This document shows, in pieces, positions 5,042 through 60,098 of a stretch of 64,000 nt of DNA; within the stretch, counting starts at the first letter, position 1; each line of letters begins with the position of its first letter. The position numbers and the translations under genes are program-made. The stretch comes from Octopus vulgaris (Eukaryota). The DNA is taken from NCBI GenBank assembly GCA_951406725.2, contig OX597837.1:12400001-12464000 (forward strand), read 5' to 3'. The notes below the pieces were generated by a model that did not search any database, was not told where the DNA came from, and saw nothing but the letters and a program-made list of their open reading frames with translations.

Positions 5042-5290
5042 ATGAAAGAATGAAGTCGAACGTAGATGTTAACAAATTTCCTTTACTCTCGACATATGTT
5101 TCGAAGACAACATGTTTTCATTCCAAAGGAATAAAGGGTGCATTATGCAATCTTCTCATCAGGAAAGAAAGGGAGCCTCTCTCGACTACAAGTCTCCTTT
5201 GGAATGAAAACATGTTGTCTTCGAAACATATGTCGAGAGTAAAGGAATTTTGTTAACATCTTCGTTCTACTCCATTCTTTCATTTATTCA
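5042..5290. repeat. Fold-back element (arms ~5042-5130 / 5196-5285) inserted in (TA)n
   Basis: Arms are reverse complements; absent from duplication unit 2. Confidence 0.85.
5086..5167 (-). ncRNA. Type I hammerhead ribozyme, canonical core
   Basis: Minus strand: cuuuc-CUGAUGA-gaaga..(loop)..ucuuc-GAAA-cauau-GUC-gagag. Helices I and II pair; helix III is the palindrome ACAUAUGU. Confidence 0.85.
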
Positions 5291-5586
5291 TATACAACAC
5301 ACAAATTTCTGCACATGAATCCGGAGTTTCTACCCTTGGATAGGTCGCTCCAACCGTGTTTCTGACGTGAATTTGCTACCCAGGTTTCGGTTAAACGAAT
5401 TTTCCATGCTGACGATAAACATAGGATAATTCATATATATATATATATATATATAACGGGAAGCTTTATGAAAATAGACAAAAGACGAAGGCAGGTTTAC
5501 GGAAATAAACAAAAGACGAAGGCAGATATATATATATATATATGAATAAAAGATGGAGTTAACGCAGGTTTAAACAAGTATTTTTA

Positions 5587-5670
5587 CTTTCTACATATGT
5601 TTCGAAAATTCCACTGATACTATTGAAATGAATAAAAGGTATAAACAATGCAATCTTCTCTTCGGGAAAG
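5587..5670 (-). ncRNA. Hammerhead-like motif, mirror copy of 6230-6313
   Basis: Reverse-complement arm of the fold-back; same CCGAAGA...GAAACAUAUGUA motif. Confidence 0.65.
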
Positions 5671-6229
5671 TGAAAAAACGAAACTCGTCAATACGACATT
5701 TTAGCAAAAAATGATGGATTCGTATAGCAATAGACAGAACACTATTAATATTGTTTAAAAAAACGTTATGTGATATAACGTCATAAGTAGCTAAGAGAAA
5801 GAGTAGGGATATTAATAGTGAATGTTAAATATAAAGGAAATTAAATTTTAAACTATATATAATGATAGAGACTACCTATATGCACTAAAAGTATGTTTCT
5901 GCTAATGCTTACATCTGTATGCTCGTTCTATAACCGTGTTTACTAGAGTATTTTTAGAAAAAATAATGAAAAATAGCTCAGAATTGCAGAGAAGACAGAA
6001 TTTCTTGACTTTGTCATATGGTATCGAAATTGAGAGGATCAACCATTCTAAATGAAATTGTTCATTTATATTTAACATTCACTATTAATATCCCTACTCT
6101 TTCTCTTAGCTACTTATGACGTTATATCACATAACGTTTTTTTAAACAATATTAATAACGTTCTGTCTATCGCTATACGAATCCATCATTTTTTGCTAAA
6201 ATGTCGTATTGACGAGTTTCGTTTTTTCA

Positions 6230-6313
6230 CTTTCCCGAAGAGAAGATTGCATTGTTTATACCTTTTATTCATTTGAATAGTATCAGTGGAATTTTCGAAA
6301 CATATGTAGAAAG
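6230..6313 (+). ncRNA. Hammerhead-like motif (U4C core variant)
   Basis: cuuuc-CCGAAGA-gaagauu..aauuuuc-GAAA-cauau-GUA-gaaag; same family as 5086-5167. Confidence 0.7.
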
Positions 6314-6638
6314 TAAAAATACTTGTTTAAACCTGCGTTAACTCCATTTTTTATTCATATTATTCAAATATTCAACGTAAACACGAAGTTTCAACCTTTA
6401 TACACAAGGAGTTACATCTTTACTTGTGAGATTTTTGCTGCCCTGGTAACTATTTATTTATTTTTCCGTGTTAATTGTTAACAAGGTAAAATACACTCAT
6501 CTATTTATATATTTATATATATATATATATATATATATATATATATATATATATATATATATATATCTGTGTGTGTATTTATATATATATATATATATAT
6601 ATATATATATATATATACATACAAACAGAAAAAAGTAG

Positions 6639-8102
6639 CTAAGCCGTTTTGTTTCTTTTCGCTTCGTTTGATTGACCGGACGAGTCAGATCCCCCTATAA
6701 TCGCCCATTCTTGGATTTCTCCTCTTGCCAATATTGCAAATATTATTGCACCAAATACACAAATACCACTGTACAAGGATAACACGATCTGCCATTCTTC
6801 TTGTGTACCGTTTGGGGTTAAAGCTTTTGTAGTTAAGGAACTAATACTGCCGGAGAGTGCAGATATTGCATTAGCAATTGAATACACAACACCAGCAAAG
6901 CTTGGCGCAATGTCGATGTTATTAGGGATAACTCCCCCACTGGAAAATGACAGAGTGATACCACTGAGCAAAAACAAGACACTTATCAGAATGGTTTGGT
7001 CACATCTGAGAAATCCTATGGTAATCAGTATACATGCTGATGTAACCATCGAAAAAGTTTGGAATAAAACGCGAACGGAACGGTTTGACAGATATTTCTT
7101 TGAACGCAAAATGTCTGCGAATTTTCCACATATCGGTAGAGCAAACATTTGTCCCATGGAAGGAGCAGACGACATTAAACCGTTCGATGTTGTTTTAATG
7201 TTTAAGGCTTCTTTCATATAAAGAGGTAGCAACGTCTGAAAGGACATATCTATCCAATTATAAGCAAACAAACCAATATTAATGGCCCAAACTGCAGGGG
7301 AAGAAAGCAGCCGTTTCCAAGGTACCTTTTGAACAGCATTTTTACATTTTATAGCGTCGTTTAAGTAGAAACGTTCTTCTTCACTAATAGCTGGATGAAC
7401 GTCTGGATTATCGTAAACAACATACATCCACACAAATCCAAACACCAACGATAATCCACCAAATATATAAAATATCGAACCCCATCCATTATCAAATCCA
7501 TATACACAAAGGTAACTTGAAGTAGGAAAGGCTACAATATTACCGAGAATTTGACCAGCAAATGTAAGCCCAATTAATACACCGTTCTCTTCTGGAGGGG
7601 CCCAACGTCCGATTAGGAAAAAAACTGCTGGAAATATAGGTCCAGATGCCATACCTGTTAATATTCTTAGAGCAAGCATAAAGTAACCATTAATTCGAGT
7701 TAAACTTGGGTGAAGAATTGCTAGAATGGATGTTGAAAGAATTGAACCTGCAGCGGTTATTTTCCCACCATATTTATTTGCCAATGCTCCACCGAAAATA
7801 TTAGTCACCATATATCCATAGAAGTATCCAGCCAGTATGTTTGATTGTAACGTGTCGCTCCATTCAAATTCTCCTTCTATGTTTGGATTAAAGGAATCAT
7901 TAGCGAAACCAGAACAATATTGGTTGTTCGTAGTAACGTTAACTTCCTCATTTGTACGATTGGCTCTTTTCAACATACAAACAAAGGACATGCTCAGATC
8001 GATTCTTAATGTTTGCATGATAAGTAATGCCACAGTACAAGCGTAACATATCCTCCATCGACATGAATAATAACGCTTAATGCCACTGGTAAATTTCGAC
8101 AT
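6639..8102 (-). CDS. SLC17/sialin-like transporter, copy 2 (intronless, intact, 487 aa)
   Basis: ATG at 8102 (MSKF...); same motifs as copy 1; differs from copy 3 by 4 aa. Confidence 0.93.
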
Positions 8103-57728: not shown

Positions 57729-57850
57729 TTTTATGGTATGACTTCTGGTTCTCACAATGTATTACTTGGAACTGAATGTTTGTACATATATTTATCCACG
57801 ATAGATGTAACATAAATATGTGAACAATACCAACATTTCCAGTTCCTAAT

Positions 57851-58047
57851 GCGACGAGCTGGCAGAGACGTTAGGACGCCGAGCGAAATGCTTAGCGGTA
57901 TTTTGTCTGTCTTTACGTCCTGAGTTCAAATTCCATCAAAGTCAACTTTGCCTTTCATCCTTTCGGGGTCGATAAATTAACTGGGGTCGATATAATCGAC
58001 TGGCACCCTCTCCCAAAATTTCGGGCCTTGTGCCTAGAGTAGAAATG
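57851..58047 (+). mobile_element. SINE family C
   Basis: GCGACGAGCTGGCAGA..GAGTTCAAATTCC..GCCTTTCATCCTTTCGGGGTCGATAAA; a fragment also occurs at ~55576-55885. Confidence 0.7.
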
Positions 58048-58567
58048 AATATATCCAATTCCTTCTGTTTACGGTAAATATGAAATTCCACATATATTTA
58101 AAACACCTTTAAATGACTCTTCTAATCAACTGCTCATCGAAAGATGTTGCTTCAAATCCATATTATTCGTTGATATGTTTAATTGTATCTTATATTTGTT
58201 CTGCATATTTTTTTGGTGGTGTTTGCAAGAAATTTTCTATTCCAGGTTGTATCATTACAGGTAATCCACTCCTTGTAGCAGGAATTGAGAGTCCACGTGT
58301 AGGAAATATTAGCACAGTAACAAATGCTGAGAATTTAAGTTCTTTGAGTGTTTGTTTACGCTTCTTTATGCTCTTAGTTCTGGAAAGAATTCCTCGATCG
58401 TACATTCGTGGAAATGTGTGACCTGTACGAATATAAAGAATCAATATTAATTTATATATCTATATATATATTAGCACTTACACACACACACACACACACA
58501 CATATATATATATATATATATATATATATATATATATATATATATATATATATATATATATATATAT

Positions 58568-59015
58568 ACAAGAAAAAAGCAACAAGAATGGTTCAGTACA
58601 ATTGTTTCATACGAAGAACAGCTTATTAAAAGCTGCAAATATTGCAGCAAACTATGCATCATTAGATAACTTTTCAAGTCTGTTTACAATCTAACTTTGC
58701 TTTTCATAGAACTCTCTTCGATACTTCATGAGTGTAGCCTCACCCCCTAGGATGTTTGGAAAACTCATATGTGTTTTGGCTGATGAATACGGGACACTTG
58801 TATCTGCTGCTATATTTGCAGCTTTTAATAAAGCTGTTCTTCGTATGAAACAATTGTACTGAACAACTAATCCATTCTTGTTGCTTTTTTCTTGTTTATA
58901 ATCACCCCACATTATTTTATGGTTAATACCATATAGATTTCTGGTGCCTCTAAGTTAAGTACCGCATTCATGTGAATTCATTGGAACTCATTTGAATCTT
59001 AATTGTTTTTACTGA
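58568..59015. repeat. Fold-back HHR element in (TA)n (arms 58568-58659 / 58805-58897)
   Basis: Reverse-complement arms; flanked on both sides by (TA)n. Confidence 0.82.
58772..58865 (+). ncRNA. Type I hammerhead ribozyme, canonical core
   Basis: uguuuugg-CUGAUGA-auacg..cguau-GAAA-caauu-GUA-cugaaca. Confidence 0.82.
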
Positions 59016-59593
59016 TATATATATATATATATATATATATATATATATATATATATATATATATATATATATATATATATATATATATATATATATATAC
59101 ACATGCAAATAAAAGCATGCGTCCTCACGCACATCCACAAAGGGGTTAAACGCGTTAGGGAAAGAACACAAATTTATTATGCAAACATATGTTCGCGCTA
59201 ACAGATGCATCCACGCACGTATCTGCATTCATAAATGCACAACATGTGGTCTCACCTAAAGCAATGAATGTTATTTCATCATTTATAAAAGTGAACATGA
59301 AATGACACATTTGATAATGGCACTATGTGAACAATGTACTTGGTTGTATAATTTCATCCAGTATATACTACCAGAAATCCTATATCACAAGGTAGATCAC
59401 ATTAGGTATATAAAGTATGTGGCTCCAATGAGAACATAAGAACTTCTGGACATATATATATATATATATATATATATATATATATATATATATATATATA
59501 TATATATATATATATATTATATATATATATATATATATATATATATATATATATATATATATATATATATGTATAACATATATATATATATAT

Positions 59594-60098
59594 GTAAACA
59601 AAGTCAAATACGATACAATAAAATAAATTATTATCGCTGGTGTTCTAGGACACGCCATATATTATTCATATATAAGTACATTAAAAGGCGAAGTGTGTAC
59701 TAGATACACAAAAGCTGGATAAATTTAATGAGATGAAAATTAAAAACTTTTACAAACTTAGTTCTTCTTAGACTGCAGTTTCGCCTATTTCAGCAATAAA
59801 AATAATATTTATTTACTCAGGTAGGCTCTTCAGTAAGATTCCTGTTATTATGGGAAGCGCACATTAATAGAGGCACATGCGTCTATTAAATTGCTCTTTC
59901 TAAACTATTCAAATCACTGCGCAGACTCAGAACGTACCCGACAAAATAGGGTTTTCTGGTATATCGTCTAACGCTCAAAAATTTATCGAGAAAATACGTA
60001 AACAAAGTCAAATGCGATACAATAAAATAAATTATTATCGCTGGTGTTCTAGGACACGCCATATATTATTCATATATAAGTACATTAAAAGGCGAAGT
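59594..60098 (-). mobile_element. Retrozyme-like non-coding element: 404 bp unit + 101 bp direct repeat, one HHR, in (TA)n
   Basis: 59594-59694 is repeated at 59998-60098; HHR at 59766-59838. Confidence 0.8.
59766..59838 (-). ncRNA. Type I hammerhead ribozyme, canonical core, fully paired helices
   Basis: ucuua-CUGAAGA-gccua..uaggc-GAAA-cugca-GUC-uaaga; palindromic ACUGCAGU. Confidence 0.88.

Follow-up and report, generated by a model that had tools for sequence, protein, structure and literature searches.

Hammerhead ribozymes (HHRs) occur in animal genomes at the ends of Penelope-like elements (PLEs) and in small non-coding retrozymes, and both bear on the DNA analysed here, a 64,000-nucleotide stretch of the 2.8-Gb Octopus vulgaris genome (assembly GCA_951406725.2, contig OX597837.1, positions 12,400,001 to 12,464,000; below, "the window", in whose own coordinates positions are given). 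In the available text of the published sources, to which our statements on the literature are limited throughout, it is already in print that one genome may hold many HHR families in single or inverted copies, that helix III may be palindromic and (TA)n the target, and that retrozymes may be parasites of PLEs (PMC4209133, PMC8557442, PMC7229834). Retrozymes and PLE hammerheads are known already, molluscs included; what is new here is a testable mechanistic signal in arrays of retrozyme-like units.

The minimal HHRs of PLE terminal repeats (PMC4209133) resemble those of the window in forming many families, in occurring mostly as single copies with truncated PLEs and as opposite-strand pairs 100-700 bp apart, and in sharing an extra base between positions 9 and 10.1, U3-A8 cores and a palindromic helix III. 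Family-wide U6 and U4C, both seen in the window, are not mentioned in the available text, and the 34-125-nt helix II inserts found here are far longer. PLEs of the Hydra clade (PMC8557442) have in common with our elements a C-terminal endonuclease without CCHH, the motifs RWK, DKT and CxCX5C, an HHR with 4-bp helix III, and (TA)n. Unlike those of the window, the HHRs listed there have a loop 2 of 3-10 nt and mostly a non-palindromic helix III, and our Hydra-like families differ further in that two of them (A and B) lack CxCX5C in the frames read and that 3' untranslated regions (UTRs) reach 1.2 kb or more.

Animal non-LTR (long terminal repeat) retrozymes (PMC7229834; 10.64898/2026.07.22.740005) are, like the units of 404, 505 and 535 nt described below, low-GC tandem units that lack an open reading frame (ORF), carry one type-I HHR each and range from monomer to long array. 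Circles exist in coral, mussel and axolotl, and mobilisation by PLEs has been proposed (PMC7229834); the mussel retrozymes of 350-390 bp are a mollusc precedent. Against a published range of 170-400 nt (PMC7229834) our 404-nt unit is borderline and the other two lie above it, while all fall within the 51-972 bp of the 2026 preprint (10.64898/2026.07.22.740005). Our units are unlike the published ones in their long irregular helix II and 8-nt palindromic helix III, and the available text of both sources describes no fixed 3' ends, (TA)n targeting, tails or two-armed arrays. The Xenopus retrozymes of the preprint show homology to the PLE terminal repeat (pseudo-LTR, pLTR), whereas none was found for the units here. 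For a further, tRNA-headed element the nearest precedent is the SM-alpha/Sj-alpha repeats of schistosomes (PMC6765202), which likewise are short non-coding retroposons with a Pol III-type promoter followed by an HHR. Those are tandem repeats freed by cleavage, whereas our element is a dispersed monomer with a minimal, dimer-type HHR, and unlike SM-alpha it bears a 25-30-nt tail and, in 21 of 43 loci, an inverted 5' piece, both of them PLE-type insertion marks.

The author of an initial annotation of the window knew of no description of such families for this lineage. That holds in part: the supplement of PMC8557442 lists Hydra-1_Obim, an HHR-bearing Hydra PLE of Octopus bimaculoides, while a search to which Repbase, most subscription papers and the supplements of the 2014, 2020 and 2026 papers were external turned up nothing on retrozymes in octopus, on retrozyme arrays with two arms or on a tRNA SINE (short interspersed element) mobilised by a PLE. 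A 2026 octopus repeat annotation reports Penelope families and many unclassified SINEs, with no mention of ribozymes in its available text (PMC13282606), and the 2026 preprint, as far as available, sampled no mollusc.

Results

Hammerhead motifs of the window

The HHR motifs of the window are real, but they belong to more than one system. At each of the 15 positions annotated initially (5086, 5587, 6230, 24099, 24385, 25292, 31629, 39246, 41632, 46511, 54965, 56085, 56320, 58772 and 59766) we find a type-I HHR or a decayed copy of one; the assignment rests on the core and on helices I-III with helix I open, and self-cleavage after NUH is predicted. A strict two-strand scan (core, helix II of at least 4 bp, palindromic helix III, helix I of at least 3 bp) returned 11 motifs in this AT-rich window (GC 34.6%, many microsatellites), against a mean of 0.05 and a maximum of 1 in 100 block-wise dinucleotide shuffles. 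The four motifs outside the strict set (41632, 46511, 54965 and 56085) carry one or two breaks each, most of them restored in family members; a C-C pair at the base of helix II is family-wide in the 54965 family.

Helices I and II had been said to differ between families yet stay paired, and this is borne out. In 11 window motifs, one per family or subfamily, 51 of 55 helix I pairs and 43 of 44 helix II pairs are kept (strand-swap means 30 and 22), counts that are partly circular because the motifs were chosen by pairing. In 30 genome matches to a pattern with no helix I or II requirement, the counts are 122/150 and 99/120 (swap means 80 and 64), and none of 20,000 swaps reaches either. Helix III is indeed mostly palindromic: all six palindromes named initially are present in the window, and the same 30 matches have a perfect palindrome in 20 cases, or 27 if G-U is allowed. 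Pairing is thus kept across families and copies, and one compensatory change, A-U to G-C in helix I, appears in 3/12 loci of the 54965 family. The Rfam model Hammerhead_1 is absent among the 150 matches listed of 209 for the whole window, a scan swamped by microsatellite matches, and on 59594-60097 alone RF00163 gives 30.6 bits at 59765-59839, below the gathering score of 34.

Eight motifs (5086, 5587, 6230, 25292, 41632, 54965, 58772 and 59766) are of a long-helix type with 8-nt palindromic helix III, in which 34-125 nt, folding mostly as an extended hairpin, separate the helix II base pairs. Computed helix III duplexes of these 8-mers range from -6.4 to -11.1 kcal/mol, and helix III is almost absent from the folded monomers. 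A U3-A8 type with ACCGGU in helix III is found at 31629 and 39246, and a minimal ACGU type with an extra A after A9 at 24099, 24385 and 46511 (U at 6) and at 56085 and 56320 (canonical). Core variants that depart from CUGANGA are family-wide in 7/15 motifs, namely the U3-A8 pair, U4C at 5587 and 6230, and U at 6. Counted as exact pattern matches against a reversed-pattern control, the genome holds 23,206 long-helix (control 462), 14,280 canonical minimal (control 51) and 8,951 U3-A8/ACCGGU matches (control 77); the four patterns, the U at 6 form included, sum to 65,193 against 590. Among 30 unselected long-helix matches about 17 resemble Hydra-like PLE ends and two are unit families.

The surroundings of the motifs are less uniform than first described. 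Two motifs (31629 and 39246) lie directly behind coding sequence and the 5587 arm holds an endonuclease fragment, contrary to the view that most sit in short non-coding inserts. Bounding by (TA)n is seen on both sides in 7/12 inserts and is missing at 54965 and at the 56085/56320 insert, and 46511 adjoins (GATA)n.

Retrozyme-like units and two-armed arrays

Units of 404, about 505 and 535 nt are ORF-less, dispersed and joined head to tail as 1-22-mers with fixed 3' ends and random 5' ends. Their tandem anatomy suggests that they are animal non-LTR retrozymes, for which expression as circular RNA is predicted. The window holds:

59594..60097, minus strand: 404-nt ORF-less retrozyme unit, a 1.25-mer, (TA)n on both sides
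59766-59838, minus strand: HHR of the 404-nt unit, ACUGCAGU, cut predicted after 59771
41349..41976, minus strand: 535-nt ORF-less retrozyme unit, a 1.18-mer, HHR at 41632-41712 with ACAAUUGU, (TA)n on both sides
54923..55215, plus strand: about 505-nt sister unit of the 535 family, truncated, HHR at 54967-55041

In dimers of the 404- and 535-nt units, the two scanned, the longest ATG ORFs are 58 and 46 aa and GC is 0.32 and 0.31. In all sufficiently long copies of the three kinds of unit, the 5' side runs on into the unit's own 3' end, and each unit lineage has a sister family of the same layout at 72-75% identity (72% for the 404-nt unit, locus L273).

With two duplicates (L035, L052) excluded, all 25 fetched loci of the 404 family are 1.0-2.0-mers, 96-99.6% identical, for a query that favours full units. 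Ends are fixed on one side only: 24/25 loci end at unit 401-404/+4, 177 nt behind the cut site, while 5' ends are scattered, and TA follows the 3' end in 23/23 and precedes the 5' end in 22/23. Copies longer than 177 nt cross the cut site, and therefore the template must have been a circle or an uncut multimer. The cut site is free of indels in 23 of 25 readable loci, and at least two exact HHRs occur in 8/55. In the duplicated parts, 29 of 45 non-majority bases are common to both repeats, where 4.3 would be expected from another locus; 7 of the 16 unshared sites come from L037, whose alignment crosses a TA break. A 404-nt back-joint in one presumed-RNA run was set aside, since tandem DNA would yield it too and it carries no information on circles or expression.

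The 535 lineage has 2,201 exact HHR matches (control 0), and the first 100 listed include many arrays of 2-13 units, with minus and plus arrays often placed back to back. We fetched six such arrays, picked for their two-armed look, with 0.6-12.8 units per arm; array-internal loci were left out of the 535 counts. Both ends are covered in five of them (in L279 the right end lies further out), and in 5/5 one arm terminates near unit 405 and its partner near 535, within or beside (TA)n; the centres join at unrelated unit positions. Units within and between arms show no substitutions in 3/6 arrays and about 2 in the others, compared with 1.4-19.7 between loci, and 20/22 substitutions are confined to a single unit. 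A 22-mer on C9, in which 20/21 whole units are identical, also ends at unit 405. The two end sites lie 130 nt apart, so that exactly one arm of each of these five arrays bears the PLE 'tail'; its length matches Hydra-like tails (about 115-145 nt) and is unlike that of Neptune (35 nt). Target duplications of 12 nt and about 40 nt flank two 535 copies. The 535-nt unit folds at -140 kcal/mol, against -108.5 +/- 6.2 for 30 shuffles.

Two observations were discarded: the 535/505 units resemble the 58772 tail over 25-40 nt, but not significantly, and a repeat-sharing figure for the 535 unit (15/25) came from an alignment overrun. Separately, the 22-mer starts directly behind the 3' end of a U6-core element (L246:300-620; see below), an instance of elements nesting in each other's TA ends.

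Ends of coding PLEs

Seven of the 15 motifs are 3' ends of PLEs that entered (TA)n in truncated and often two-armed form. Five are Hydra-like, 25292 only probably so, and two are Neptune-type. Their anatomy has been described before (PMC4209133, PMC8557442), and their origin is published biology. The Hydra-like ends are:

5042..5432, both strands: 3' end of PLE family A as a two-armed insertion; the left arm (minus) has the full HHR, the right arm (plus) starts within the HHR and bears a tail of about 145 nt
5086-5167, minus strand: HHR of the family A left arm, ACAUAUGU, cut predicted after 5091
5544..6500, both strands: PLE family B as a two-armed insertion, HHRs at 5587-5670 (minus) and 6230-6313 (plus), tail on the right arm
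5875-6066, minus strand: endonuclease fragment, a frame within the 5587 arm of family B
24466..25799, plus strand: AT-rich 3' region with HHR at 25292-25453, ACAGCUGU, and (TA)n of variable length inside helix II
58569..59014, both strands: PLE family C (Hydra clade) as a two-armed insertion, with a short left arm (minus) and a right arm (plus) that has the HHR and a tail of about 115 nt
58775-58863, plus strand: HHR of the family C right arm, ACAAUUGU

In the family of 5086 (A) the 3' end is fixed at (TA)n or after the tail and upstream stops are random; 9/30 loci reach a GIY-YIG-like endonuclease frame, and the reverse transcriptase (RT) was not reached in the longer stretches L200 and L201. 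Family B has the core CCGAAGA in 15/15 loci, and 8/15 reach the endonuclease, two of these the RT. The family of 58772 (C) reaches a GIY-YIG-like endonuclease in 2/15 loci, and the extended locus L203 displays the Hydra-clade set of RWK, DKT, CxCX5C linker, CxxC, CxH, C-terminal endonuclease, HHR and (TA)n, with no CCHH. The endonucleases of A and B are 33-39% identical to that of L203, with CxxC and CxH and no CCHH; CxCX5C was not seen in the frames read, the N-termini of both lying outside the stretches compared. A Pfam scan did not recognise the Hydra-like proteins. The region 24466..25799 probably represents the long 3' UTR of a PLE of Hydra-like kind: one (L198) of two extended loci has a linker and an endonuclease of that kind about 4.5 kb upstream, and in the second an inverted arm matches that upstream region. 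The (TA)n tract inside helix II of this family is about 10-47 nt (25312-25358 in the window; L126-L140), its length varying while the flanking pairs are kept. Where arms face outward in coding PLE families, exactly one is tailed in 6/6, 5/5, 10/11 and 5/6 pairs, counts in which some loci enter twice and some pairs are not independent. Further Hydra-like fragments (CxCX5C linker, endonuclease start) lie at 39908-40368, 43242-43887 and 2571-2747.

The Neptune-type elements are:

31581..35355, minus strand: broken Neptune/Nematis-type PLE between (TA)n tracts, with an RT frame at 32525-34525, the end of the endonuclease in a different frame and the 5' part spread over several
31633-31670, minus strand: its HHR, U3-A8 with ACCGGU
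38290..39425, plus strand: second Neptune-type PLE, 5'-truncated, with endonuclease 38289-38612, 3' UTR and HHR 39246-39286 (U3-A8, extra A before ACCGGU)

The first copy shows RVT_1 (E 2.6e-8), DKG and a CX4CxxC linker. Of the CCHH of the Neptune type, the sister copy at 38290 shows both His. The linker also occurs in Nematis, a type that may fit 31581-35355 as well. The initial annotation had cast this copy (31578-35356) as a candidate autonomous PLE able to mobilise the other elements. As it stands the copy is not autonomous: it is split over three or more frames with stops and has no 5' pLTR. It is probably not the driver; its HHR is of the U3-A8/ACCGGU type and its family has a 35-nt tail, both unlike the 535 units. 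A Neptune-type endonuclease precedes the HHR in 9/15 loci of the 31629 family and 7/12 of the 39246 family, copies are 96-98% identical, and (TA)n is the target.

Several neighbours resemble these ends. A two-armed (TA)-bounded family at 39504-39809 and 45398-45567, absent from the initial annotation, has a U3-A8 core and ACCGGU, with GCA replacing GAA in all copies seen (cores near 39604, minus, and 39708 and 45455, plus); it is probably a further Neptune-type end whose HHR would be variant or dead. A third Neptune-type endonuclease fragment lies at 53487-53723 (plus). A palindromic (TA)-adjacent family (3243-3510, 35507-35917, 56414-56723, 53291-53412) has ACCGGT and a CTGAGGA half core with no full HHR, and about 35 nt of its end flank the Neptune copy (31495-31530, 35505-35540), like a target duplication.

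Short elements with minimal hammerheads

The remaining motifs belong to two abundant non-coding families:

24052..24266, plus strand: U6-core non-coding element, minimal HHR at 24099-24136 (CUGUUGA-A, ACGU), 3' end in (TA)n
24288..24465, minus strand: U6-core element from a different subfamily, sharing the TA tract of the preceding one, HHR at 24385-24422
46421..46640, minus strand: a further U6-core element, whose 3' end lies at (GATA)n and whose helix III palindrome is broken (ACCU)
56034..56416, both strands: tRNA-headed element as a two-armed insertion, with inverted arm 56034-56182 holding an HHR at 56085-56130 (minus), A/B-box head 56183-56252, (AAC)n, and body HHR 56320-56365 (plus)

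The U6-core family is roughly 205 nt long and has 18,756 exact matches genome-wide (control 0), in which position 7 takes all four bases and U6 is invariant. Of 25 loci, 12 have their start 26-37 nt upstream of the query and four extend to about 135-170 nt; 22 end in TA, and none reaches an ORF. Changes at A6 and U4C reduce activity in other hammerheads, A6U not being mentioned in the available text (PMC3088659). The family is most likely a short non-autonomous derivative whose ribozyme would be weak or dead, and it has likely been amplified independently. The motifs at 24099 and 24385 do not form one two-armed insertion: the two copies point towards each other, their identity is about 79%, and their cores are different. 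A canonical-A6 sister with a 3-nt loop, common among the listed minimal HHR matches, offers a natural control.

The tRNA-headed element measures about 270 nt, to which (AAT)n is added; inspection shows A and B boxes, after which comes a minimal HHR with 4,197 exact genome matches. Of 25 loci chosen by the tRNA-like head, 23 continue into the HHR body. From 50 loci we kept 43, dropping 7 copies of a locally duplicated window region (L111 and L210 are one insertion); in 31/43 the 5' start falls within 17 nt, and TA stands at the 3' end in only 3/43, so (TA)n is not the target of this element. The 3' ends form two groups 25-30 nt apart with no simple-repeat tail. ARAGORN called no tRNA in the head, at 6 loci or the window site, nor did Rfam, and the T-stem is degenerate. 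A LINE-type (long interspersed element) tail is missing, and the anatomy points to SINE-like promotion, by predicted Pol III, with PLE-like insertion. Most likely the family is a Pol III-transcribed PLE parasite that would be copied from linear RNA. A coding parent of either short family was sought in 277 loci with 1.5-kb flanks, and no consistent endonuclease was found upstream of the ACGU-type HHR.

Other features of the window

A cluster of intronless MFS transporter ORFs occupies 655-2151, 6639-8162, 15474-16967, 51765-53000 and 56659-57761 (MFS_1 E 1e-44 for the first), and 6622-11179 and 15457-19977 are a 98% tandem duplication. The 54-60 kb part of the window recurs with its inserts up to three more times nearby, at about 12.50-12.61 Mb (L035, L101, L103, L104, L142, L232-L234); these copies differ in insert presence and are useful for ordering insertions. 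At 26486-26557 (minus) ARAGORN calls tRNA-Asn(GTT) and Rfam tRNA scores 51 bits; its body resembles that of a tRNA-Asp with altered anticodon. The ORF at 60783-61586 (plus) resembles a mariner transposase fragment and that at 27757-28284 (minus) a LINE RT C-terminus.

Discussion

Taken together, our analysis makes it probable that the window samples a genome-wide mix of PLE-related HHR elements, in which PLE ends stand beside retrozymes copied by PLE machinery. The one-sided tail and the two-armed, near-identical arrays fit two-sided PLE priming on an RNA circle. How could such arrays arise? A multimer would be transcribed, and adjacent HHRs would pair through the 8-nt palindromic helix III and cut out one unit, which a host ligase would circularise. 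A PLE RT/GIY-YIG protein might then bind the circle, nick both (TA)n strands and prime from two points within the unit that lie 160 and 290 nt behind the cut; each RT would circle the template a variable number of times, and the two cDNAs would be joined at their 5' ends. In PMC11167929 the protein of a Poseidon PLE, a predicted dimer, cuts and extends each of the two strands, and the tail is defined by the two internal sites at which it starts. A Hydra-clade PLE is the candidate driver of the 535/505 units because Hydra-like PLEs have the HHR type and the long tail of the 535 units; this assignment does not extend to the 404 unit, which has neither tail nor inverted arms. Dimer cleavage, ligation, two-sided priming on a circle, rolling and the Hydra-clade driver are all steps that we infer from sequence. 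We suggest tentatively, as a possibility somewhat short of probable, that each 535 array is a single event in which two Hydra-clade RTs, primed on the two strands of a (TA)n target at both PLE start sites, rolled around one circle up to 13-22 times, and that the tRNA-headed element is a Pol III SINE with a PLE partner in place of a LINE.

A number of points weigh against this picture. The 404 family shows no inverted arm in 23/23 loci and no tail; its circular fold (-79.5 versus -70.8 +/- 5.4 kcal/mol for 30 shuffles) is just 1.6 standard deviations lower, with helix I outside the minimum-energy fold, and for 25292 and 58772 the HHR fold is not the favoured one when they are folded in isolation. 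Selection of the six arrays was based on the very look that the model explains, and their single-unit differences could be assembly errors, one L279 unit being error-rich. The 3' parts of the 404, 535, 505, U6 and tRNA-headed elements show no significant similarity to six window PLE ends (all z <= 2.1), and therefore no partner is identified by homology. Moreover, HHR cleavage is dispensable for insertion in vitro by the Poseidon PLE (PMC11167929), and 8/9 Xenopus dimers did not cleave (Li, Clavereau & Pollet 2026, 10.64898/2026.07.22.740005).

The main rival, which we judge rather unlikely, accepts that the unit families are mobile but takes as template a linear, multimeric transcript of an existing array, or else linear monomers that template jumping has joined, with the HHR as passenger or RNA trimmer. 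Arrays of up to 22 units are available as sources, the Poseidon result speaks for it, and the U6-core family reached 18,756 copies, so that an intact core is not needed for spread. However, in young arrays the units are identical and both arms carry variants specific to the array, which points to a single-unit bottleneck, whereas daughters of a linear multimer would inherit the unit-specific changes of aged arrays; and the cut site is indel-free in 23 of the 25 readable 404 loci. It is improbable, in our view, that arrays grew at the DNA level, by unequal exchange or slippage once 1-2 units had inserted, or that assembly artefacts account for part of them. In favour, unequal crossover with local amplification is the view preferred in the 2026 preprint, identical units would also follow from a recent expansion or a collapsed assembly, and L283 and L282 each have one substitution common to more than one unit. 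Yet both arms are multimeric and match each other, their outer ends lie at two PLE start sites, 20/22 substitutions are single-unit, and 1.x-mers with random 5' ends imply that the template exceeded one unit from the outset.

We would be surprised if the model of the initial annotation, a single set of (TA)n-targeted non-autonomous mini-elements driven by Neptune PLEs such as 31578-35356, were correct. Neptune-type families are young and abundant and target (TA)n, and the 404 and U6 families could use a Neptune protein; but 7/15 motifs end coding PLEs, the copy in the window is broken and unlike the 535 units in HHR type and tail length, and the tRNA-headed family seldom has TA at its 3' end. 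The independent amplification claimed there stands for the 404, 505, 535 and tRNA-headed families and fails for those seven motifs because, as variably 5'-truncated coding PLE ends, they are the very case, decayed PLE 3' ends, named there as contrary. We give almost no credence to all motifs being such decayed ends: although this holds for those seven and for many unselected long-helix matches, and the U6 family is compatible, it is refuted for the four families just named, since the units continue into their own 3' ends and the tRNA-like heads into the HHR body.

On the reading that we prefer, PLE machinery copying retrozymes, the arrays bear on a question that the available literature states as open, namely which enzyme moves animal retrozymes and whether the template is a circle (10.64898/2026.07.22.740005, PMC7229834). 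The marks of young arrays are PLE-specific: a tail on one side only, inverted arms and (TA)n as target. The tail length points to one clade, and an in vitro test could draw on the exact start sites and on a 535-nt substrate that the arrays provide. Since many of the 65,193 matches are of the long-helix form, descriptors built on short loops would miss them. A PLE-dependent Pol III SINE, if true, together with a changed-core family of 18,756 copies, bears on whether the ribozyme is necessary at all. If the proposed mechanism is true, ribozyme satellites would be born full-length as PLE insertions.

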